From a virus: DNA of 42,129 nt. The notes under the pieces are model-generated. The model was not told where the DNA came from. It searched no databases and saw only the letters and a list, made by a program, of their open reading frames with translations. Of the stretch, positions 1,314-23,756 are shown piece by piece. Position 1 is the stretch's first letter; every line of letters begins with the position of its first letter. The position numbers and the translations under genes were made by a program. Location of the stretch: UHGV virus genome UHGV-0179013. One strand, written 5' to 3'.

Positions 1314-2314
1314 TATTTTGCTCTCACCAGTAGGTTGAACGCCACGTTGCGGGGGCGATTTTCAGATGCCGTAGGAACGACTTTCGAAGCATCAAAAGTG
1401 GCGTAAGCATTTGCCCCGCCCCCTGATATTGGGTTATTTTTATTCGATGCTGATGGGCCAAGAGAAAAAGCACCTGATGCGTAAGTTAATAATCCATCTG
1501 AATAAACTCCAACATTACCAGTAATGTTACGAATAGCATCACTCTGCGCTGAAAGTAATGCGCGTCCACCATCAACACCTCGCCCGTCATCCCAGATACG
1601 CAGAAACTCACCGCGACAGTCAGTTAATTTCAGGCCTGGCCATACACGCGCAAGTGCTGGATATGTTGACGCCGAGAACGTAGCGTCATTCATTTTTAGG
1701 AAAACATTAGACGACCATTCTGGGACAACTGTGTTGGGCATTGCTGACACGGGCCAGAAAAATGGAATACCAATAGGCGGTGGTGCTGACTGAACTGAGT
1801 TACTGACATCATCCAGAAGAGCCATTGTTCCATATTTTGTCGGTATCTGGATTGAGTTGTTATACTTCCCATCGATATAGACAATTAGTTCGTAGCCAGT
1901 ATCAGATACAAACAGGTTTACCCTCCTGCTCCCGTCACTGGATGCTGCTGACACTCCTTTTTTAGACGCGACCACTCCGTTGAACATTTGTTCATTTGAG
2001 CTGTTTTTATCTGCGAAATTAGTCAAACCAAGGTTTGCGAGAGCCGTAGAAATCGCCGCTGCACCATCTGATTTGATATCGGCAAATGGGTTTGCACGGC
2101 TCAGTGTGAGTTTTTGAATGGCTTTTAAAACCTGAGTCATATCGTTAATGTCGAGCGCCAATCCTGCTGACTCTACGATATGCGCTAACTCTTCCTGCAT
2201 GGCGTTAAACGCTGCTGCCCGCAGCCTCGTTGCGGCAATACCACCAGCAACACTTCCATCAGTATATTTGCCATCCTGCGTTGCAGTGGCTTCGACTTGC
2301 CCGATTCGGAGCAT
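1313..2314 (-). CDS. Tail fibre protein with C-terminal phage tail-collar-like region
   Basis: 333 aa; C-terminal segment GEFLRIWDDGRGVDGGRALLSAQSDAIRNITG resembles the phage tail collar motif; position after baseplate genes and before tfa. Confidence 0.65.
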   Translation of the reverse strand: MLRIGQVEATATQDGKYTDGSVAGGIAATRLRAAAFNAMQEELAHIVESAGLALDINDMTQVLKAIQKLTLSRANPFADIKSDGAAAISTALANLGLTNFADKNSSNEQMFNGVVASKKGVSAASSDGSRRVNLFVSDTGYELIVYIDGKYNNSIQIPTKYGTMALLDDVSNSVQSAPPPIGIPFFWPVSAMPNTVVPEWSSNVFLKMNDATFSASTYPALARVWPGLKLTDCRGEFLRIWDDGRGVDGGRALLSAQSDAIRNITGNVGVYSDGLLTYASGAFSLGPSASNKNNPISGGGANAYATFDASKVVPTASENRPRNVAFNLLVRAK

Positions 2315-5118: not shown

Positions 5119-6200
5119 GTATTGAATCCCGCCAGGTTCTGGTAGAAGGCATATGGCTGAACGGCGAATGCTTCAGGCGGCATCAGCGTCATGCGTGCAT
5201 GGGTGCCGTAGTCATCGCGCATATAGGTGACTTCTGCCAGTAGCAATTCAGTCTCCGGCAACCGTAAGGTGGGAAGATCAACGGGGATCAATGTGTTTGG
5301 TTCCCACAGTTTCCCGTCTTTATCCCGCCAGGAATCGATGGTTACCGAGAGCTGTTTTGAACGTCCGTACCGCCGGTTCATTTCCCAGTCGATCGCACTT
5401 TGTGCCTGTTGAGTAGCCATCAGGGTACTTTCCACAATCGATATATGTTTTCGGTACCGCATACGGGCGGCCTCCGGATCTCTCGCCGTTGCCAGAGTCA
5501 CAGCGTCATAGGCCGTATCAGGCGAATACCCTGCAATTGGAGAAACGCTCATTGATACACCGACATAATCTGAAAACCTGTCAGCCATCGATTTGCGGTA
5601 GTATGCCTGCTCGACATTTACCCCTTCGGCTATCCCACTCGCCGCACGACGTGTTCCCACCCGGGTCAGTAACAGGTTTCCATCGGGCTGATCGTAGTAA
5701 AGCAGAGCAGACCATCTGGCCACCCGATCGATGACTTCTTGCGGAGACTCACCCCAGTTCAGAGTGAACTGGGGTACCTTCACAAGCTCATCAACATCCG
5801 TGGTTACGGTGATGCCGTAGTAGGATGCCAGGCGAGAAGCAATTTCAAGTGCATTACTGGCATTAATGACGTTGTTAGGCCACTCAGCTGAGCAATCCAC
5901 CAGGTCCTGACATTTGCTCCTGCCCGTGGCGCGGACCTCATGGCGGGAGCGCGATAGTGCGGGTTCCCAGTCATCAACATATCCCGTCAGTGTCAGATCA
6001 TCTCCGATACGAACTTCACAAGACATTCCCTCTTCAACGAGTTGACGATCTTCGTTGCCAGGGAAGTAATCCATTAGCCCAAGATCGAAATCAGAGGGAA
6101 AACGCTCAATACCCCGCGTTACCCGGACAGAATCCCACCCCTCGATGATTTTGCCGTCGACCGTCAAAGAAACAACATCCAGATCGCTGTCTGCATTCAT
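5115..6200 (-). CDS. Baseplate hub / tail protein (Mu gp44-like, P2 gpD-like)
   Basis: 361 aa; synteny between DNA-circulation-like gene and V-like gene. Confidence 0.45.
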   Translation of the reverse strand: MNADSDLDVVSLTVDGKIIEGWDSVRVTRGIERFPSDFDLGLMDYFPGNEDRQLVEEGMSCEVRIGDDLTLTGYVDDWEPALSRSRHEVRATGRSKCQDLVDCSAEWPNNVINASNALEIASRLASYYGITVTTDVDELVKVPQFTLNWGESPQEVIDRVARWSALLYYDQPDGNLLLTRVGTRRAASGIAEGVNVEQAYYRKSMADRFSDYVGVSMSVSPIAGYSPDTAYDAVTLATARDPEAARMRYRKHISIVESTLMATQQAQSAIDWEMNRRYGRSKQLSVTIDSWRDKDGKLWEPNTLIPVDLPTLRLPETELLLAEVTYMRDDYGTHARMTLMPPEAFAVQPYAFYQNLAGFNT

Positions 6201-7597
6201 TGCCTCAGTACCTTCATGGTTGTCGGCATAAACGCCGGATGCGGTACGCGCGCTTCCTGTACCAGTTCATCTGCACGGGTGGCATCCTGGTATAATCGGT
6301 TTGCCAGCGTCAGCGCCGGAAGCGGCTGAGCGGTAGTAACCTGCAGAAGCTCGCTCAGACCAGAAGCACGCTCACTCATCGTAGAAAGGAATGCCGATCT
6401 GACGGCGAGAAGCGCGTTATACATATCATCGTCCGCGCGGTCTCCAGCCAGAACCAGCGCCGTATCAAGTTGCACAGAAACTCGTTGAGTTAACTCTTCT
6501 GCCTCGTCTGTACTGGCAGGTCTGGAGTCCGCAGCGGCACTGGTCATGGCACCAGTACATAGCACAACAATCAGCGTGCTCATGGTCGCCGAAATCGCTT
6601 TACTGCTGTCGGACTGCTGGTACTCCGTGCTGATTGAATTAGCCAGTTTTTCCAGCGCTGTAATTCGGTCATTAACGCTGCCGGCGCTGTTAAGAATTGC
6701 GTTTACCACGTCGGCGACGCCCTGGACAAACTCATCAGGGGTGTTGGAGCTGCTAAGCTGGCTCGACCTGTCGGTAACATTTTTCCGGTCCATTACCGAC
6801 TGGGCTGTTACCTTGTCAGCCAGTGCTCTCTCATCATCCACATCAGCAACTGACAATTTGCCAGCAACAGCAGAGGAACTACCGCCCACAGAGCCTTTAC
6901 TGTAACGTCCGTACCGGGTATTCCCGAACGTGGAGTTCAGGACATTACTGAGATTCGTTACCTGGCTGATGGTATTGTTAACCATGTTAGTCCAGAACGT
7001 GACCGTGCCTCTGATGGTGTTTATAGCCTGTGTGACACCGCGGATTTCACTTTTAACCCTGGCAATCGTACTCAGCACAGCAGTGCTTACCAGTTTCAGA
7101 TAGTTGGTTTTCACCGTGGCGCCTGCAACGGTACTGCCCGTGACGGCAAACACTTTAAGCCCTGATTCAATTGCCATCAGAGTAAATTCAAATACTCGCC
7201 CGTTCTCCATCGACCCGGAAATACGCAAACCATTCTCAGGGATGGAAACCGTTAATTCTCCCAGTGTAGGATGGACAAGCGTACCGCTTCCTTTTTTTTC
7301 ACAGGCAGCAATGAGCGACTGACGTTGAGTGATAACATCACCACCACCGTAAACCTGACTGTTCTGGATGATAAATCCGCGGAGAACAAAGCGCCGGGTT
7401 CCCCGACCAAGATCCTCTATCCAGGCCGTATCCCGATAAGGGTATTCATGTACAGCCTGACGTCTGCCGTGGCTACCTTCTTCCATCACCATGGCGAAAG
7501 GCACACCACGAAAGGAACTGGATCGTATTAATCCCCGCCAGTCATCGTTGTCACCGCCCCCCATCAGTGCAGTTATTGCATTCTGGATAATTGGCAT
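6197..7597 (-). CDS. Mu gp43-like DNA circulation protein (tail-associated)
   Basis: About 466 aa from ATG at 7597 with AGGAG RBS (ORF-track start at 7627 lies inside the terminator hairpin); position directly after the tape measure gene. Confidence 0.45.
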   Translation of the reverse strand: MPIIQNAITALMGGGDNDDWRGLIRSSSFRGVPFAMVMEEGSHGRRQAVHEYPYRDTAWIEDLGRGTRRFVLRGFIIQNSQVYGGGDVITQRQSLIAACEKKGSGTLVHPTLGELTVSIPENGLRISGSMENGRVFEFTLMAIESGLKVFAVTGSTVAGATVKTNYLKLVSTAVLSTIARVKSEIRGVTQAINTIRGTVTFWTNMVNNTISQVTNLSNVLNSTFGNTRYGRYSKGSVGGSSSAVAGKLSVADVDDERALADKVTAQSVMDRKNVTDRSSQLSSSNTPDEFVQGVADVVNAILNSAGSVNDRITALEKLANSISTEYQQSDSSKAISATMSTLIVVLCTGAMTSAAADSRPASTDEAEELTQRVSVQLDTALVLAGDRADDDMYNALLAVRSAFLSTMSERASGLSELLQVTTAQPLPALTLANRLYQDATRADELVQEARVPHPAFMPTTMKVLRQ

Positions 7598-7612
7598 CAG
7601 GTCTCCTGAAAT

Positions 7613-7634
7613 AAAAAAAACCGCCACCTGGCGG
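7613..7634 (-). terminator. Intrinsic terminator between tape measure gene and baseplate genes
   Basis: Hairpin CCGCCAGGTGGCGG followed on the minus strand by a run of 8 T. Confidence 0.6.
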
Positions 7635-7665
7635 TTACCGTATATACAATGACAGTTGAAAATGA

Positions 7666-9603
7666 TCAGTAAGACATGGGTAACGTTATTCTTCCGCCAT
7701 CTTCGGCGCTGTATTCCCTTCGCCCTCCCTTCCCGTCGATCATGGTGATCTCAAGTTTCAATTTTTGCTCAGCCATCGCACTCATGAAGGAGCGCGTAAT
7801 ATTATCGGTAAGGGTCTTATCTGGTCCCGAACGCTGCAACTCTGGCTGAATGATTCCGTCTCCAGAGGATTGTTCGTTCACCGGACTGTCAGGGAAAGCA
7901 TCACTTTTCCCTTGTTGTGTTCTGAGTATCGTGGGTTCTTGATCCACGCCGCGTGATCCAGAGATAATGTCATACCGCTGCTGGGCCAGCACATCCGGAT
8001 TTCTCTTCCCTGACCACCGATCATCAGTAATGGCGGTCTGGATGGCGTTTAGCAGTTGTTCCTCAGTATAAGGTTGTGCGCCATTCTCATGTTTAATCAT
8101 GGCTGCCATTATCGTTTTTAATGTTTCCGGATCGTGCAGATTTACTTGCTCTTTGGCTCCATATCCAGTGGCTTTTGAGACGGAGTCAATATATGCACGA
8201 GTCTTATTCTCTGATTGCGGAGCATAGGTATGAATAATCCCATCCAGAGTATTATTCCCCCTGTCACCATACAACATCAGCTGTCTCGCCATTGCAGTTC
8301 TTCCGTCGGCATCATTCGCAAAGGTAGAAAATCCGCCATTTTTACCCGTTGCGTTTGCTGCAACCCTCAAATTACCGGGATTATTATTTCTGAAGCCAAT
8401 TGCGTTATTCCTTGTTTCCCCGTAAGGAACATTGCCGCGTGCAACGTTGGATTGTGGCTGGCTGATAGCGGATAAGTCATTCTGCAATTGAATCGCAGAA
8501 TCGGTCGCGCGGTAATTCGCATCGTACCGCTTTCTTACAGCATCAGTCATGAAACCCGCGTCAACCTGCCCACGTTCACTGCGGGGTAAGCTGTTATAAA
8601 GTTCCTTATCGTTCTGAATGCGCCGTAGTTTCTCAGCATCATTGCTGTTGATAAAACCGAGAGCATGAGACAGCCCAGTAAAATCACCATTAGTGAACAG
8701 ATCGGTAACACCTTCAAGGCCGTCTTTGACTGAACCATCCGAAAGAATGGTCTTAAGTGCCTTGTTTTTTGAACGTTGCCACAGACCATCCCAGGATGCG
8801 CTGAGCTCATTCATCGTTCCATTGATGTCGCTTAGTTCTTTATTAAGTTCAGGATCAATTGTTAGCCCAAACTCATCAGATTTAGCCAGCAGCGTTTTCA
8901 TGCGCTCACCTTCACGCATTAACGCCAACATTTCTGGCGTCAGCCCAAGAGCATCCGCTACGGACTTTTGTTGCTCAGGCCGCAACGAAGGGAAGACACG
9001 AGCAATCTCCTGTAATGTTTTTAGCGTATCAACAGAACCATCATTGTTTTTCTGTATCTGGACACCAATTTGTGCGAGAGCACCGAGCACCTGACCATTA
9101 GCGCCACTGGCAGCTTCTTTCAGCGTCTTAGCCATGCCATCAATAGAAGCATTTGCGCTTTCACTATCAGCACCGAGGATGCGCATAGCTCCAGCAAGAC
9201 GAGAATAGTCGTCTACACGCATTCCAGCATTTTTTGATGAAACGTCCAGGTTATATGCCTCCCTGGACGCTTCACGAAAGCCATAGGCAACTTGTTTGAG
9301 ACCGTACCCGGCTGCACCAACAATACCTAGTGACCCGAGTTTACCAGATAGCTCCCCTACCATTTTCAATGGAGGGACTATATCCCCGATAAACTGCACG
9401 TTATCCCTGGCACTTTTGGACAAATTTTCAAAACGTGAAATAAAGCCATTCAGCCCGTCAACTGTCTCCTGTCCACCTAACTGAAGCCCTTCTTTAGTTT
9501 TATCAAGCTTAGGTTCAAGACCTCGGATAGCTTCATTAATACGGTCAATAACATCACTGACCTGATCATTAGCCACCAGCTCAAAATCAAAGACATTACT
9601 CAT
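7666..9603 (-). CDS. Tail tape measure protein
   Basis: 645 aa, largest tail gene, located between the frameshifted chaperone and baseplate genes; low-complexity Ala/Gly/Ser-rich segments. Confidence 0.65.
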   Translation of the reverse strand: MSNVFDFELVANDQVSDVIDRINEAIRGLEPKLDKTKEGLQLGGQETVDGLNGFISRFENLSKSARDNVQFIGDIVPPLKMVGELSGKLGSLGIVGAAGYGLKQVAYGFREASREAYNLDVSSKNAGMRVDDYSRLAGAMRILGADSESANASIDGMAKTLKEAASGANGQVLGALAQIGVQIQKNNDGSVDTLKTLQEIARVFPSLRPEQQKSVADALGLTPEMLALMREGERMKTLLAKSDEFGLTIDPELNKELSDINGTMNELSASWDGLWQRSKNKALKTILSDGSVKDGLEGVTDLFTNGDFTGLSHALGFINSNDAEKLRRIQNDKELYNSLPRSERGQVDAGFMTDAVRKRYDANYRATDSAIQLQNDLSAISQPQSNVARGNVPYGETRNNAIGFRNNNPGNLRVAANATGKNGGFSTFANDADGRTAMARQLMLYGDRGNNTLDGIIHTYAPQSENKTRAYIDSVSKATGYGAKEQVNLHDPETLKTIMAAMIKHENGAQPYTEEQLLNAIQTAITDDRWSGKRNPDVLAQQRYDIISGSRGVDQEPTILRTQQGKSDAFPDSPVNEQSSGDGIIQPELQRSGPDKTLTDNITRSFMSAMAEQKLKLEITMIDGKGGRREYSAEDGGRITLPMSY

Positions 9604-10023
9604 CGTCTTCAGAGTTCCTGAGTTTGTTGATTCGGGCTGCCTGGGCTACCCACCATTTCAATCGGGCGCGGGTCATTCCCCACGCCCTGTCCTCTGTCCA
9701 TCGGAAGTAATACGTGACATCAGCTGCCGCTTCCTGCCAGGCCGTCAGGCCTTCCAGGTCAAAAAACTAAGCAGATATTCCTCACACTTACGGAAGTCGA
9801 GAAAATCCATCGGCTGCAGTACGCTTTCACGCGTACCGGAAACCAGCGCAATAAGCAGGCGCATCGCCGCGAGCGACGTTGACGCAGCCTGTTTCTCGTA
9901 AAACTGCTCAGCCTGGCTTAGCGTGGGTGCTTTCAGCTCCAGCTGCGTATAAGTGGTCTTCTCCGCAGCATCATCCAGCGCTACGGTTAATGGAATGGTT
10001 TTAACGCGTTCAATCTCAGCCAT
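9596..10023 (-). other. Predicted -1 programmed ribosomal frameshift product of the tail chaperone (GT-like fusion); slippery site T-TTT-TTG at 9760-9766
   Basis: After the heptamer the -1 frame stays open for 46 codons and ends at a TAA (9596-9598) that overlaps the tape-measure ATG, exactly filling the otherwise non-coding 140-nt gap. Confidence 0.6.
9745..10023 (-). CDS. Tail assembly chaperone (short, unshifted product; G-like)
   Basis: 92 aa between tail tube and tape measure genes; contains slippery heptamer near its 3' end. Confidence 0.6.
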   Translation of the reverse strand: MAEIERVKTIPLTVALDDAAEKTTYTQLELKAPTLSQAEQFYEKQAASTSLAAMRLLIALVSGTRESVLQPMDFLDFRKCEEYLLSFLTWKA

Positions 10024-10024
10024 C

Positions 10025-10396
10025 TTAGTTCTCCGTTACGTCGCGGCCTTCCCAGCGAACATCAAATACTGCATCTTCGCTTTCCACTTCCTGGACGTTG
10101 ACCGTCCAGAGTGAACGGCCAATGATAGTTTTCCCGTTAGCCAGCTCGGCGATCACGTTGACGTTCGTCTGCTGGTTAAAGCCCTGCACATTCGTTCCGC
10201 CACTGTCACGCAGTCGGGCAGAAATGTATGGCGCCACAGGTTTTTCCTTATATCCGTGCACACCATCCATCCCTGTCAGGGTGGTACGGTTTACGGTGGC
10301 AGCCTGGTATTTAAACGAGCCCTCCACCATTACCGTCACACCGTTAACAGTGACATAGGCGGTTCCCGCCAGGCGGTTAGTAGTATCACCTGCCAT
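10025..10396 (-). CDS. Tail tube protein (contractile tail)
   Basis: 123 aa directly downstream of sheath gene; conserved sheath-tube-chaperone-tape measure order. Confidence 0.6.
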   Translation of the reverse strand: MAGDTTNRLAGTAYVTVNGVTVMVEGSFKYQAATVNRTTLTGMDGVHGYKEKPVAPYISARLRDSGGTNVQGFNQQTNVNVIAELANGKTIIGRSLWTVNVQEVESEDAVFDVRWEGRDVTEN

Positions 10397-10399
10397 CGT

Positions 10400-11902
10400 T
10401 TAAGCTCCTGTTGATTCAGCCCGAGTGCGGAACTGATTGAGCAGCGCGAAAATGCGCAACTGGTTCATGAGGGTTCCCGGCCACAGCACATCGACGCGGT
10501 TCGGATTTTTGGCGTTCTGCTCGACGATGATATTTTTTGCGAATGCCTCCGCATCCTGCGCATAACCGTTCCATACCAGAGTCTGGTACTCGGCAATCTG
10601 ATCGGCCTTGATAATGTTTGGCGTGACGATCGCCGCGCCAGGTGCAAATCGGGTTCCATCCGCAGCAAGCTTCATACGGCCAAACTTGCTGGTCACCGCT
10701 GTGCGCAGGTAGCGGGTCACAAACATCAGGCTGAACAGCGTCTCCACTTCCAGATAACTGTCATCTGCATCGCCATAGCTGTTTTTCTGGTAGGTGGTGA
10801 TCAGGTTTTCAATGCGCACCGTGCCATCGTCATCGACCGTAAATGTCGAAATGCCGCTGTACAGCAGATTGTTACGCTCGGTCAGCTCAAAGCGATCCTG
10901 CAGTTCTGGCGCAAGCACCCCCTGAACAGCGAGCGACTGTAGCGGGCGGCCGGGGTCATTACGCAGACTCACCGCAGCTGCGCCGGTGTAAGCTGCAGAC
11001 CATGCCCAGGAAGGGGACGGCGATTTATTTACGCCCAGCAGGGTCTCATGCTGGTTATTGCGCAGCTCACCTTTGGTACCGAGCTGGGCGTAAGTCCCGG
11101 TGGTGGTACCAAAGGAATGGCCATAAAGCTGCTTGTCCCATGCCCAGCGACCGCCAGTGTCTGACAGGAACTCCTTCATCACATTCAACGAGGTTGTATC
11201 GTCGTAAGGGTTGATGATGAAATCGAATGTCCGATCCTGCAGGTTTGCCAGCGCGCCGGTAATATCCGGAGCCCCGACTCCGTTAGACATAGCAGTAATC
11301 GTCAGTTCCAGGCCTGCAGGTGTGGACTCGCCTCCAGGTAAGCCGAGGAAGTTCAGGCGAATGTCGATCCCATTACCCGTAGCACCAAGATTCTTCGCGG
11401 TCAGGGTTACGGTATCCGTAGTCGCACTGGCGGTTACAGGTAGCGTGGTTTTTGCGTTAATCGCCGCGGCCAGAGAGGTGGCGATCGCTGCCACCGTATC
11501 TGTTGCTACAACGGTCAACTGAATGCGCTCACCAGCAATATAAAGGGAGATCACTCCGGTTGCCGTCGGTGCGCTGCTCACTTTAATGGTGCCGGTTGCA
11601 GCCACCATGGAATCGGAGTCTTCCTCCAGCGGCAGGATCCAGACTTCGGCTGCGGTATCATTTTTCTGATACGCCGCCATCATGGCCTGCAGAATTCCCC
11701 CTTTTCCTGTCAGCTCACCGACGGTATCCGAAGAGGAAACTCGCTGCGGAATACCAGGGGGGGTTGAGCCGGTACTGAGCATCCCACCGATAAGCAGGGT
11801 GCGCTGCGTGGCAGTGGCGTTATTCGCCATTGAGTTATCAAACTCAACGAAGAAAAGCCCTACCCGCAGGTTATCGGGAACACGAGCGAAAGGTACGGTC
11901 AT
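10400..11902 (-). CDS. Tail sheath protein
   Basis: 500 aa; position upstream of tube gene; size typical of contractile sheath. Confidence 0.6.
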   Translation of the reverse strand: MTVPFARVPDNLRVGLFFVEFDNSMANNATATQRTLLIGGMLSTGSTPPGIPQRVSSSDTVGELTGKGGILQAMMAAYQKNDTAAEVWILPLEEDSDSMVAATGTIKVSSAPTATGVISLYIAGERIQLTVVATDTVAAIATSLAAAINAKTTLPVTASATTDTVTLTAKNLGATGNGIDIRLNFLGLPGGESTPAGLELTITAMSNGVGAPDITGALANLQDRTFDFIINPYDDTTSLNVMKEFLSDTGGRWAWDKQLYGHSFGTTTGTYAQLGTKGELRNNQHETLLGVNKSPSPSWAWSAAYTGAAAVSLRNDPGRPLQSLAVQGVLAPELQDRFELTERNNLLYSGISTFTVDDDGTVRIENLITTYQKNSYGDADDSYLEVETLFSLMFVTRYLRTAVTSKFGRMKLAADGTRFAPGAAIVTPNIIKADQIAEYQTLVWNGYAQDAEAFAKNIIVEQNAKNPNRVDVLWPGTLMNQLRIFALLNQFRTRAESTGA

Positions 11903-12096
11903 TCATTTTCTCCCGCTTTTTTAGGTAATGATTGTTTCTCTGGCGCGCCCTCATCCTTTTTAGAGAGGATCACGTCCCCATCGCTCAGACGGCGACGCCA
12001 GAAAATATTATCAGGTACTTCAGCACCCTCTTTAGGCAATGGGATGCCCTTGACGGGGCAGCGAACGCTGAGCCCGTTGTTCGGCTTAACAAACAT
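11899..12096 (-). CDS. Small conserved tail-cluster protein (DUF2635-like)
   Basis: 65 aa, stop/start overlapped with sheath gene. Confidence 0.35.
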   Translation of the reverse strand: MFVKPNNGLSVRCPVKGIPLPKEGAEVPDNIFWRRRLSDGDVILSKKDEGAPEKQSLPKKAGENE

Positions 12097-12099
12097 GGA

Positions 12100-12645
12100 T
12101 TACTCCTGAAGATTGAGGCTGATACCCGGTTTAACTGTGCCGTCTGGCATGTCGACCGCAATATCCATGCCCTCAAGGGGAACCGACTGGACAGGATAAA
12201 AATCTTCCGGCCCCTGGTAATGCTCTATGTCGATCTCGAAAAGAAGCTGCCCCATATGGGCCTCTCCTTCTGAATCAACATTGATGGTTGAACGAACTTC
12301 CGCGTATTTCTGAATATTCCGCGTCAGTTCGTAGCTGTTGATCACCGCGCGCTCCACCTGCTCGCGAAGGCTTTCAAGCGCCAGCTCTGCCCGCATGGCT
12401 CCATCATCCACTGTATCGCCGTCATACTCCTGAACGCGCCCAGTGATCCTGACAGTGGTGAGGGTGGTAAAAGCAGGGGTATTACGCCCCTGTGATTTTT
12501 TCTGTTCAAAAGGCGTCTGAACCAACAACACAGGATACATATCTGGTGAAGTTGACCAGTCGCGTGGAGAGAATACGCGGTCGCCCGCGCTGGTTGTCCC
12601 GGTTAGTGCAGTGACAACCATTTGCCGTATCGCTGCTGAATTCAT
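12100..12645 (-). CDS. Putative tail completion / neck protein
   Basis: 181 aa, sits at the head-tail junction of the gene order; no recognisable motif. Confidence 0.3.
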   Translation of the reverse strand: MNSAAIRQMVVTALTGTTSAGDRVFSPRDWSTSPDMYPVLLVQTPFEQKKSQGRNTPAFTTLTTVRITGRVQEYDGDTVDDGAMRAELALESLREQVERAVINSYELTRNIQKYAEVRSTINVDSEGEAHMGQLLFEIDIEHYQGPEDFYPVQSVPLEGMDIAVDMPDGTVKPGISLNLQE

Positions 12646-13001
12646 CGCGGTTTTACCACATTGAGGACAAGACGAGATCCGCCATGACTGTCGGGTTCGA
12701 CATTTGACACAACAAATAACTGATTGATGATGTGACCACCGACCGTCTTTATAAATACCCGGTCAGATACAGCAGGTTGCGATTTACCCAGCTTGCGAAA
12801 TTCAGCATCGCGCACACCCAACATCGGGCTGGAGGTGTTAATTTCTGAATCGCCATCAAGGTTTTCAGCAACCTGCGCATAACCACGGTCAAAAATCCCG
12901 TTAATTGTAAAAGGAGTACCGTTACGTGGACGGTACTCGTGCTCATCGCCAAAGACATCATGCAGCGGACTCAGAAGATGAGAATCCCAGTCCACGCCCA
13001 T
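12642..13001 (-). CDS. Head-tail connector protein (lambda FII position)
   Basis: About 119 aa from ATG at 13001; the ORF-track start at 13106 would overlap the upstream gene by 100 nt. Confidence 0.35.
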   Translation of the reverse strand: MGVDWDSHLLSPLHDVFGDEHEYRPRNGTPFTINGIFDRGYAQVAENLDGDSEINTSSPMLGVRDAEFRKLGKSQPAVSDRVFIKTVGGHIINQLFVVSNVEPDSHGGSRLVLNVVKPR

Positions 13002-13005
13002 GTCA

Positions 13006-13386
13006 TTACCCTGTCGTAACTGAAACTGATGGCTGAGAAGCAAGAACTCGCTTACGAAGCACATCAACATCAGCAATAACGCCGGACTGCAGAAGACGCT
13101 CAGCATCTTTGCCGGTTACAGGGATGCGCATATTTTCGCGGTACATCTCCCCGTCATGACGAATGCAATTCCCTTTCAACACCACATACTCCTGCGATTC
13201 AGTGTCTCCGGATTTTTCGTCACCACCATCGTCATCAACAGACAATTCGGCATCATCTGTTTTGCTCAAAGGCTGTTTTTCCTGGGTGTTATCGCCAGCA
13301 TTCAGGTCGTCAACGCTCAGGCCGTCTTTGGCAGATCCTTCTGCATTCAGATCATCAGCCAGCCCGGTATTAGGTTGTTTTGCCAT
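13006..13386 (-). CDS. Acidic head-associated protein (lambda FI position)
   Basis: About 126 aa from ATG at 13386, immediately after capsid gene stop; Asp/Glu-rich. Confidence 0.35.
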   Translation of the reverse strand: MAKQPNTGLADDLNAEGSAKDGLSVDDLNAGDNTQEKQPLSKTDDAELSVDDDGGDEKSGDTESQEYVVLKGNCIRHDGEMYRENMRIPVTGKDAERLLQSGVIADVDVLRKRVLASQPSVSVTTG

Positions 13387-13387
13387 A

Positions 13388-14437
13388 TCAGACCACCGTT
13401 GCGCAGAGGGATGCATTTACCCGGCTCGGAATAACCAGCGGGGAGGATTGCATCAGGATAAGACGCTGGGCTGGATCTTCTTTCACCCAGGATTTTGGCG
13501 CATAAGCCAGCGGACCGTAGTTGAAAGCCGGGTCCAGGATAACGCCAAAGGCGCGGGTACCCATCAGATCGGCACCACTCATAATGACAGCGCCATCGGG
13601 GATCATAGGCTTCTCGACGTTGTCCAGCGGGTCAATAAACCAGTCGTTATATAACCAGAGGTCAAAGTTACCCCAGCGCCCTTTATAAATTGCGCCCTTC
13701 ATTACCTGTGGGCCGGCGTTAATCTGGTTACCAAACGGGCTCAGCGCCGGGAATGTAATGGCGTTATCCTTGATGGTGGTATCCAGTCGGAATGCACGCC
13801 ATGACTTATTCGTAAAGACCAGATCCGTGGCGACAGAGCCGGACTCTTTCAGGAAAGTAGTCTGCCAGATTTCAATGTCATCTGATGGCTGGGTATTGGT
13901 AGCGCCAGCTGCAACGGTCAGTGGCCATTTATCCGAGCCGCTAAGAGTGATGGTCAGATCCGAAGCACGCCCGAAATCCACCACCTTAGTTTCATAGCCC
14001 TCCCCGGCGACGGTTACGGTCCCAGACACCAGCGCACTCGCCGCCATCCATTCCAGACGACGGTTGATCATGTCAATCTGGTCAGTCATTTCAAACTGAA
14101 GGTTCAGCATTTCGCGCTCGGCAGCGGTATATTCCCCGCCAATACGCTCACCAATCTGGCGGCGGATAGGTTTGCGCAGGTCCGGCGCGCGCTTATCTTT
14201 GATGTATGCCGGTTTGAAGGTATTGGTCTGGTATTTACGGGATTCGACCAGCTTACCTTCCACCAGCGGGGAGACGAACGGCGCCATACGACGCAGGCCG
14301 ACATCAACATCAATCGCCACTTCTTCAGTCTCGTAAGTCACGACATTCGGGAAGAAGCGATCGAGCAGCCAGTTCTGACTGGTTTTCAGGTTAGGAACAA
14401 CCTGCACCAGCACGCTGGTATCAAAAATATTTTCCAT
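13388..14437 (-). CDS. Major capsid protein, lambda gpE family
   Basis: C-terminus KSWVKEDPAQRLILMQSSPLVIP parallels lambda E C-terminus KNWVTTGDPAREFTMIQSAPLMLL; about 349 aa from ATG at 14437. Confidence 0.8.
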   Translation of the reverse strand: MENIFDTSVLVQVVPNLKTSQNWLLDRFFPNVVTYETEEVAIDVDVGLRRMAPFVSPLVEGKLVESRKYQTNTFKPAYIKDKRAPDLRKPIRRQIGERIGGEYTAAEREMLNLQFEMTDQIDMINRRLEWMAASALVSGTVTVAGEGYETKVVDFGRASDLTITLSGSDKWPLTVAAGATNTQPSDDIEIWQTTFLKESGSVATDLVFTNKSWRAFRLDTTIKDNAITFPALSPFGNQINAGPQVMKGAIYKGRWGNFDLWLYNDWFIDPLDNVEKPMIPDGAVIMSGADLMGTRAFGVILDPAFNYGPLAYAPKSWVKEDPAQRLILMQSSPLVIPSRVNASLCATVV

Positions 14438-14534
14438 ATTCAGTCTCTTGATAGTGCCAGCCGCAGCTGGCAAAAAATTTAAACGAGCCAGCCCCTGCCG
14501 GTTAAAGCATTCGTCAGGAGAGCCGTGGGGGAAA

Positions 14535-21741: not shown

Positions 21742-22389
21742 TTATTTTGCCGTCCTGATGGCTTCTGCTATCGCCTGATTTAAAGCAGACGGTAGCAGTG
21801 CGTTCGCCATGGTATGGGACCTATCCATATACCCCAGCACTGGAGTCACAGGTAGCGCATCACCAAACCGGATCAAAAGCTTTGGAGAACGCTGTTTGCG
21901 TTTCGGTCTTCGCGTCCCGTTAGCGGAACGTTTGGCCCGTCGCTTCTTAGCTTTCATCGGCTTCTTACGCTGCCAGACAGCGTTAACGCCATCAACCTCA
22001 CCTACGAATACATTTTCCTTTGTTTTAAGCTGTGAGAGCTTATTACGCGGCATGTTGCCGTATTTGTTTAGCTTAACGTTCTTGGGATTTAATAGAGCCT
22101 GGCTATTGAGCTTGTGCTCTCCGCCAAACTCGAATGGTTCCAGATAACCAGCAGCGGTATCGCGGACAAAAACCTTTGCGGTCAGATTGTTCTTTCTTGC
22201 CGCCACCGAACCAACTGATTTAACGGTAAACGGCGTGGGGCTCTCCAGATGTCGTTCGAATGCCGTCTTCTGAGCCAACTCAATCTGGCGTACAACTTTT
22301 GTCATCGCCTGAGCTGTGGCAAACGGGATTTGCTTTTGCAGTTGCTTTAACTGGTTTGATAAATCCTTCAGTGTTGCCATATCAGTCAC
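21742..22389 (-). CDS. Hypothetical phage protein with basic Lys/Arg-rich C-terminal region
   Basis: 215 aa ORF; KKPMKAKKRRAKRSANGTRRPKRKQRSPK tract; function not recognised. Confidence 0.4.
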   Translation of the reverse strand: MTDMATLKDLSNQLKQLQKQIPFATAQAMTKVVRQIELAQKTAFERHLESPTPFTVKSVGSVAARKNNLTAKVFVRDTAAGYLEPFEFGGEHKLNSQALLNPKNVKLNKYGNMPRNKLSQLKTKENVFVGEVDGVNAVWQRKKPMKAKKRRAKRSANGTRRPKRKQRSPKLLIRFGDALPVTPVLGYMDRSHTMANALLPSALNQAIAEAIRTAK

Positions 22390-22983: not shown

Positions 22984-23022
22984 GATTTTTACCCCGTCGT
23001 TAACAATGATAATAAAGCATTA

Positions 23023-23054
23023 TCGCAGACACTCAGGGAATGCCTGCTGTAATG
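23023..23054. repeat. 32-bp direct repeat copy R1 (TCGCAGACACTCAGGGAATGCCTGCTGTAATG)
   Basis: 30 of 32 identical to copy R2 at 24041-24072; both lie 2-6 nt downstream of a minus-strand stop codon. Confidence 0.7.
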
Positions 23055-23060
23055 TCGCGA

Positions 23061-23585
23061 TCAGCCAATCAACAATTCTGGCTGCGTCACCTGCATGATG
23101 TGCTCATGCTCCAGTGCCAGGACGCGCTTTTCCTTCTTGCGTTCGTTCATTAAACGACTGCCGATCGTGCCTTTCAGCTTCGAGCGTGTTTCTTTGATGG
23201 CATAGCGGTGCTGCATTTCTTCGCCCATCGCCATGCGTCGGCTAAGTTGTTCGGACATCCAGTTGAATGCTGAGATATAACTCTCTTTGATTGCTGCAGC
23301 AGCTCTCCCAGTGAATCCCATCACAACCATGATCCAGCCATCTCTTGTCAGGCTGTACATCGGGCGAACCTTACCCTGCTCATCGATATAATCAGCCGAC
23401 GCAAAATTGCGTTGGCCAAACTCACTCGAGCAATCGGACTTAACCTGCTCGATTTTCCTGAGCACATCGCCGTGTCGCTTGCCGAAGTACTTGGCAACTT
23501 TTCTGGAAGTGGTGACGACCTCTCCGTTTTTGGCTTGCACCATTTCGCGGAAGTCGAAGGCCGGAATAACTGACGGATTATTCAT
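23061..23585 (-). CDS. Rha-family phage regulatory protein
   Basis: About 174 aa from ATG at 23585 (MNNPSVIPAFDFREMV ... TSRKVAKYFGKRHGDVLRKIEQ), pattern typical of the Rha N-terminal domain. Confidence 0.65.
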   Translation of the reverse strand: MNNPSVIPAFDFREMVQAKNGEVVTTSRKVAKYFGKRHGDVLRKIEQVKSDCSSEFGQRNFASADYIDEQGKVRPMYSLTRDGWIMVVMGFTGRAAAAIKESYISAFNWMSEQLSRRMAMGEEMQHRYAIKETRSKLKGTIGSRLMNERKKEKRVLALEHEHIMQVTQPELLIG

Positions 23586-23730
23586 AGCGTTTTTACCTTT
23601 TAGAAAGATGAGCCTGTTCGCACAGAAAAGCCGCCCCGAGATGGTCGCCACCATATACGGCAGTTCTCAGGCTCAGCTTTCTGAAAGACTCGGGATTGTC
23701 ATGCGCTGCGATGCGCGGTTTACTGCTGGT

Positions 23731-23756
23731 ATAAAAAAGCCTCGCAATTGCGAGGC
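23731..23756 (-). terminator. Intrinsic terminator (hairpin GCCTCGCAATTGCGAGGC followed by T6)
   Basis: Perfect 7-bp stem with 4-nt loop followed on the minus strand by TTTTTTAT; 26 nt downstream of the zinc-ribbon ORF stop. Confidence 0.7.

Follow-up and report, generated by a model that had tools for sequence, protein, structure and literature searches.

In the viral genome UHGV-0179013, the tail tube and tape measure genes flank a gene for a tail assembly chaperone, and the chaperone and tape measure open reading frames (ORFs) are separated by a stretch of 141 nucleotides (nt) that no ORF claims (9744..9604, 47 codons). All three genes, and every other feature concerned, are on the minus strand of the window, the whole stretch of 42,129 nt that was analyzed; an earlier sequence-only reading of this DNA had left the strand unstated. 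That reading had proposed that a programmed −1 frameshift in the chaperone gene was missing from the ORF track. The phase of a slippery heptamer, coding constraint in the −1 frame, conservation among relatives, and homology to phage P2 all support the proposal, and on this comparative evidence the locus very probably encodes a P2-type pair of tail assembly chaperones expressed by programmed −1 ribosomal frameshifting. The coordinates of the features are collected in Table 1.

The chaperone ORF opens with the ATG at 10023 and closes with the TGA at 9747..9745, giving a product of 92 amino acids (aa) that ends in EEYLLSFLTWKA. This product scored 35.6 bits for PF10109 (Phage_TAC_7), above the family's gathering score of 25 (E = 9.6e-9). 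The family is described as "Phage tail assembly chaperone proteins, E, or 41 or 14," and the product also matched the tail proteins of phrog_166 with an E value of 9e-28. Judged by its PF10109 match, the gene is a member of the chaperone family that includes P2 gpE and Mu gp41.

Near the end of the chaperone ORF, the sequence TTTTTTG is phased AG[T TTT TTG], which is the canonical X_XXY_YYZ register of the chaperone frame. A −1 reading that uses G9760 twice runs through 54 sense codons (DLEGLTAWQ...NSEDDE; in full, DLEGLTAWQEAAADVTYYFRWTEDRAWGMTRARLKWWVAQAARINKLRNSEDDE) that fill the 141-nt gap completely. The −1 frame stops on a TAA at 9598..9596, within codons 2 and 3 of the tape measure gene (ATG AGT AAT, with the ATG at 9603..9601), and the two ORFs overlap by 8 nt inside the octamer ATGAGTAA. 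The sequence-only reading had described this geometry correctly in outline: the heptamer T_TTT_TTG is in phase, the −1 frame is open and fills a gap of about the claimed 140 nt, and the extension overlaps the tape measure ORF. Its details needed correction, however. The heptamer ends 12 nt, or four codons (ACC TGG AAG GCC), before the chaperone stop rather than 13 nt; the extension has 54 codons rather than 46, a figure close to the length of the gap; and the TAA shares no bases with the tape measure ATG, lying 2 nt past it.

The predicted fusion is expected to have a mass of about 16 kDa and to yield the tryptic junction peptide LLSFLDLEGLTAWQEAAADVTYYFR or a variant of it. By itself, the extension matched phrog_10636 (E = 3e-20), which shows that the peptide is encoded in other phage genomes as well, and a direct scan of the window extension against Pfam and NCBIfam returned no significant match. 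Scans of the gap for promoters and terminators found none on the gene strand, and an Rfam scan of it found no match.

An alignment-based AlphaFold model of the 142-aa fusion (mean predicted local distance difference test score [pLDDT], 78) placed a beta hairpin of two strands ahead of helices and predicted two long helices for the extension. The best match to this model in the PDB was the HK97 tail assembly chaperone 2OB9, and it was weak (E = 0.58; probability, 0.63; template modeling scores, 0.36/0.45). The predicted structure is consistent with a chaperone and adds no weight to that reading. A model built from the single sequence was unusable (pLDDT, 39.5), and the sole match in a PDB sequence search, PSRP-3 (E = 0.009), was dismissed as chance.

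Table 1. Features of the chaperone locus and neighboring tail genes in the window
Feature	Coordinates	Strand	Remarks
Zero-frame tail assembly chaperone ORF (gpE/gpG equivalent)	10023..9745	minus	92 aa + TGA; PF10109, phrog_166
Slippery heptamer T_TTT_TTG, proposed site of −1 tandem transfer RNA (tRNA) slippage	9766..9760	minus	X_XXY_YYZ phase
−1-frame extension (gpE'/T-domain equivalent)	9596..9760	minus	54 codons + TAA, without a start of its own
Predicted frameshift product	9596..10023, join(10023..9760, 9760..9596)	minus	142 aa; junction ...EEYLLSFL/DLEGLTAWQ...
TAG, −1-frame stop directly upstream of heptamer	9767..9769	minus	Bars −1-frame entry from further upstream (window)
GAGG, Shine-Dalgarno-like tetramer, candidate stimulator (inferred)	9780..9783	minus	13 nt upstream of heptamer
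Tape measure protein gene	7666..9603	minus	645 aa; phrog_2276, E = 9e-149; ATGAGTAA at start
Tail tube gene (upstream neighbor)	10025..10396	minus	PF10618 Tail_tube, E = 1.8e-35
Tail sheath gene (context)	10400..11902	minus	phrog_165, E = 1e-188; PF04984 + PF17482

Conservation and coding constraint among relatives

The locus was compared across a main set of 83 loci, made up of 80 viral contigs, two Escherichia coli prophages, and Citrobacter phage phiNP. Every one of them carries the heptamer followed by an extension of exactly 54 codons that ends on the TAA of the tape measure junction octamer. Eight loci from bacterial genomes were added later, along with distant relatives found through their chaperone proteins. 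The peptide-pattern scan that supplied the bacterial loci recovered only these 8 relatives, all of them close, owing to the patterns used. With the bacterial loci included, 91 independent loci, drawn from many different genera and assemblies, show the two-frame arrangement.

Nucleotide variation in the gap follows the −1 frame. Among 40 distinct gap sequences, the variable sites fell 21, 18, and 37 times on the three codon positions of that frame, and the ratio of nonsynonymous to synonymous polymorphism (pN/pS) was 0.19 when the sites were read in that frame; the other two frames gave 1.58 and 2.19 and hold 118 and 127 stop codons. Both halves of the extension are constrained, with pN/pS values of 0.137 for codons 7 to 28, which precede the first ATG, and 0.273 for the other half. 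The most variable codon site passes from the zero-frame wobble position to the −1-frame wobble position at the heptamer, with a further switch at the ATG of the tape measure gene. These comparative measures mark the gap as protein-coding in the −1 frame and under purifying selection there.

The heptamer itself was compared in 59 distinct sequences. Upstream of it, 84 of 85 wobble sites vary and only one is invariant. Within it, the Phe codon is TTT in all 59 sequences, and the Leu codon is TTG in 58 and TTA in one, with no CTN codon in any. The codon before TTT may be GGT, AGT, or TCT, and its final T is present in 59 of 59 sequences though the amino acid varies. This pattern of substitution indicates that selection acts on the slippery site as nucleotides, conserving the heptamer beyond the needs of the protein.

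The arrangement extends to distant relatives whose chaperones are 48 to 50% identical to that of the window. A metagenomic contig keeps T_TTT_TTG, and Serratia phage BZS1 has T_TTT_TTA, which still fits X_XXY_YYZ. Their extensions are clearly homologous (...LAADVTYFYRW...RLSWWVEQAQRI...) and run as far as the tape measure start. The number of zero-frame codons beyond the heptamer varies freely among these relatives, from 4 to 14, and a zero-frame stop soon after it is kept throughout.

Public assemblies contain indel artifacts at the run of six T's. Several database proteins (P0001, P0113, and P0129) hop frames at or near this run and so appear as in-frame fusions, and in locus L004 (about 1737..1745) the heptamer is immediately followed by an N. 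The fusions in L004 and P0001 were considered as natural evidence for the joined product and rejected as assembly errors, because L004 has this N and P0001 hops frame again near its C terminus.

Another heptamer in the window is set out similarly: the ORF at 22389..21742 (minus strand) contains an in-phase T_TTA_AAT at 21778..21784, 33 nt before its stop and with an open −1 frame of 60 codons. This occurrence is probably due to chance.

The P2 counterpart and other recoding systems

The experimentally established E/E+E' frameshift of P2, in the FETUD tail operon, was reportedly described by Christie et al. in 2002 and Xu et al. in 2004, as cited in PMC3091744. Its efficiency is perhaps about 10%, a figure with indirect support from PMC5009743. 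The P2 record (AF063097) lists gpE with 91 aa and gpE+E' with 142 aa and marks a "−1 translational frameshift" site, and a −1 frameshift at TTTTTTG has been reported to yield these two proteins without any downstream structure (PMC3091744).

Similarities between P2 and the window reach from the signal to the products. The P2 sequence GTC GGT TTT TTG TCG contains the identical heptamer in the same context (GGT or AGT before TTT TTG), the paired products are 91 and 142 aa in P2 and a predicted 92 and 142 aa in the window, and the N-terminal domain of both is PF10109. The P2 E' frame ends AAT GAG TAA, overlapping the ATG AGT AAC of gene T in the same ATGAGTAA junction, and the tape measure proteins of both phages begin M-S-N. 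Conserved RNA structure downstream of the heptamer is absent from the window family, as is also reported for P2. The two also differ. By BLASTP, only 31 residues align, with 32% identity, so pairwise identity between the proteins has almost vanished; the zero-frame tail after the heptamer has four codons in the window and six in P2; and the tail module of the window is Mu-like and accompanies a lambda gpE-type capsid, unlike that of P2.

Homology between the two extensions was addressed by profile comparison. P2 gpE+E' contains PF10109 (residues 7 to 85, 47.8 bits) and PF06528, "Phage P2 GpE" (residues 104 to 139). A full-library phmmer search with the window extension returned 14 relatives, two of which (P0124 and P0127) pass the gathering score of PF06528. 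An hhalign comparison of a 13-sequence extension profile with P2 E' gave 94.9% probability and an E value of 4.6e-8 over 37 columns. By these comparisons the extension is likely homologous to P2 E', although the window sequence itself does not reach formal Pfam membership.

The octamer ATGAGTAA (window, 9596..9603 on the minus strand; P2, L086, 2851..2858) occurs in 83 of 83 relatives and in P2, and the junction has been kept from P2 to the Mu-tailed group of the window despite almost no protein identity. The shared octamer could be a sign of translational coupling, or the junction could simply have been inherited from a common ancestor.

The sequence-only reading had likened the locus to the G/GT arrangement of tailed phages. 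Membership in the lambda gpG family was not found, PF10109 being the sole match at E <= 0.01, and the slippery site is T_TTT_TTG in the window and G_GGA_AAG in lambda. What the two systems share is a gene lying immediately before the tape measure gene, a common N terminus with a −1 extension, and a ratio of short to long chaperone that is presumed to control tail assembly (PMC5009743). The tail chaperone frameshift is widely conserved in long-tailed phages; in lambda, gpG and gpGT are made at a ratio of about 30:1, both bind the tape measure protein, and the T part recruits the tube subunit (PMC5009743). Lambda is a siphovirus, and its reported shift efficiency is lower, about 1 in 30, with that of P2-like phages put 2- to 3-fold above it (PMC5009743). 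Lambda G/GT is a functional paradigm for the window pair and no sequence relative of it. The position and logic of the G/GT comparison stand, and the precise counterpart, judged by sequence, is P2 E/E+E' rather than lambda G/GT.

Phage Mu shares the tail gene order of the window (sheath, tube, chaperone, tape measure, and DNA circularization protein), and its gp41 (Mu_41/Mu_56) matches PF10109 weakly, at 24.7 bits. Mu gp41 has 144 aa and matches PF23746 (Gp41_Mu) with 119.5 bits, a family to which the window protein has no match. A record note (citing PMID 15469818) describes a verified −2 shift in the Mu chaperone. In the window, the −2/+1 frame closes at once on the TGA within TTT TTG A.

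The dnaX tau/gamma system of E. coli offers another likeness, as a bacterial −1 shift on a homopolymeric X_XXY_YYZ heptamer, with an upstream Shine-Dalgarno-like element also possible in the window. In dnaX, the heptamer A_AAA_AAG and a strong downstream hairpin give a shift of about 50% and a shorter product; the window differs in that it has no conserved hairpin and in that the shift would lengthen the product.

Proposed mechanism and competing explanations

In the mechanism we propose, most ribosomes would translate the 92-aa chaperone and stop at its TGA. A minority, with UUU in the P site and UUG in the A site of U_UUU_UUG, would allow the peptidyl-tRNA-Phe and the aminoacyl-tRNA-Leu to slip back one base onto UUU_UUU and would then decode GAC. 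Translation in the −1 frame would continue for 54 codons to the TAA, yielding a 142-aa fusion with the junction ...LLSFL/DLEG... and consisting of the N-terminal chaperone domain and a predicted helical domain probably homologous to P2 E'. If the pair works like lambda gpG/gpGT and P2 gpE/gpE+E', the two forms would cover the tape measure protein, and the less abundant fusion would use its extension to bring in the tube subunit and so start tail polymerization; neither form would be retained in the virion. We infer the slippage, the exact junction residue, and the role in assembly, with an efficiency of perhaps about 10%, as in P2.

Two candidate stimulators were considered. A hairpin downstream of the heptamer was rejected as a conserved stimulator (folding z = −0.72 in the window, and no compensatory changes among relatives). 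Upstream lies the Shine-Dalgarno-like GAGG. Of the 59 distinct sequences, 57 have GAG as the Glu codon there, and in every one a codon beginning with G follows. That this tetramer acts as a dnaX-like internal Shine-Dalgarno stimulator, and that termination within ATGAGTAA couples synthesis of the long chaperone to initiation on the tape measure gene, is a doubtful proposal; if it were true, termination-reinitiation at the octamer would set the stoichiometry of chaperone to tape measure protein.

Several observations weigh against the frameshift. Judged from the window sequence by itself, the pattern is not rare and is barely above chance: the window holds 19 copies of TTTTTTG where 10.8 would be expected, its ORFs of 80 aa or longer contain 98 in-phase XXXYYYZ heptamers, four of which sit close to the end of an ORF and have a long −1 ORF, and the frame stays open in 12% of shuffles of the 162-nt stretch. 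The case goes beyond chance because of the gene context and the comparative data, and the relatives that supply those data share ancestry, so that counts of conserved loci are not counts of independent events. A conserved downstream RNA structure that might stimulate the shift was absent from a 16-sequence alignment (consensus, −3.1 kcal/mol, with no covariation). The window extension has no PF06528 match by hmmscan, and its homology to E' rests on profile comparison and intermediate sequences. In 27 of the 83 relatives, a −1-frame ATG or GTG stands 21 nt upstream of the heptamer and is sometimes used by gene callers. Finally, the frameshift product is a prediction from sequence.

The same 142-aa fusion could arise by transcriptional slippage, in which RNA polymerase would add an extra U on the run of six T's and the frame would change in the mRNA. 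The site is a homopolymer, and public assemblies show indels exactly at this run, where polymerases or sequencers stutter. Because both mechanisms need the T run, the comparative data do not separate them. Nevertheless, the seventh base is fixed as G or A and the X_XXY_YYZ phase is kept in 59 of 59 distinct sequences, and transcriptional slippage is disfavored because selection has fixed these two properties, which are irrelevant to a stuttering polymerase. Known productive slippage by bacterial RNA polymerase uses runs of about 8 to 9 or more A's or T's, and the identical heptamer of P2 is annotated and cited as a site of translational frameshifting. Overall, we consider slippage in the transcript improbable.

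Still less probable is a small independent gene in the gap, translated from its own −1-frame start codon without any recoding. Gene callers have predicted ORFs of 39 to 69 aa here in some relatives (phrog_10636; P0121 to P0134), and the upstream ATG or GTG of the 27 loci could in principle serve such a gene. This start is not conserved across the compared sequences, however: in 56 of 83 loci, the window included, the −1 frame contains no ATG, GTG, or TTG from its last stop before the heptamer up to the heptamer itself. In the window, which has no usable −1-frame start, the TAG stands directly before TTT TTT, and the first in-frame ATG of the extension is codon 29 (9676..9674), yet codons 7 to 28 are its most constrained part. 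An independent gene would also leave the fixation of the heptamer at the nucleotide level unexplained.

A chance open frame in a noncoding spacer, or a sequencing indel that split a single gene, could draw on the shuffles that stay open, the similar heptamer-plus-ORF configurations elsewhere in the window, and the homopolymer indels of some assemblies, but this explanation is effectively refuted by the conserved two-frame layout of the 91 loci, by the frame-specific purifying selection and wobble switch seen in relatives, by the retention of a zero-frame stop after the heptamer throughout, and by the usual signs of assembly error, an N or additional frame hops, in the few "fused" proteins.

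Annotation and neighboring genes

The phenomenon is textbook; what has been missed in the annotation of this phage group is the predicted second product. The claim that the ORF track of the window lacks the extension extends to related public records, which likewise leave the gap unannotated: it is empty, with no joined coding sequence, in E. coli prophages annotated by PGAP and in the GenBank records of phiNP and BZS1, and the paper on the phiNP prophage mentions no frameshift for the chaperone gene. The group occurs in 35 of 5,426 complete E. coli genomes, and it is also found in Citrobacter, Kluyvera, Edwardsiella, and Salmonella and as the isolated phages phiNP and BZS1.

The main value of the finding is in annotation, since a widespread group of enterobacterial prophages is recorded without a second, probably essential, tail assembly protein. 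Adding the joined feature of Table 1 would mend the unexplained gap of about 140 nt that each record shows. The locus also shows that the P2 recoding cassette (T_TTT_TTG, the predicted 142-aa product, and ATGAGTAA) persists almost unchanged in a phage with a Mu-type tail and a lambda-type capsid, while Mu itself shifts by −2, a small data point for the view that recoding signals outlast protein sequence similarity.

The structural module surrounding the locus (6197..14473, minus strand) is a mosaic. It combines a lambda gpE-type capsid protein (PF03864) and a head-tail attachment protein (PF05354) with a contractile tail of the Mu type, represented by the PF10618 tube, DUF2635, and the N terminus of a DNA circularization protein (DNA_circ_N). 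Within the tape measure protein, residues 393 to 525 or so form a segment resembling endolysins and transglycosylases (phrog_873, E = 1e-40; phrog_7182, "tail injection transglycosylase"), and the tape measure homologue of one relative (L101) bears PF01464 SLT. The first 35 aa or so of the 154-aa ORF at 12642..13106 (minus strand) are hydrophobic, and its match to PF05354 begins only at residue 44; the true start of this ORF is probably an internal ATG (MGVDWD...). The structural region as a whole has almost no close match among isolated phages, and the region of a Rha-like regulator (23017..23756) has 79 to 89% nucleotide identity to the lambdoid phages phi80, HK639, and 2B8.

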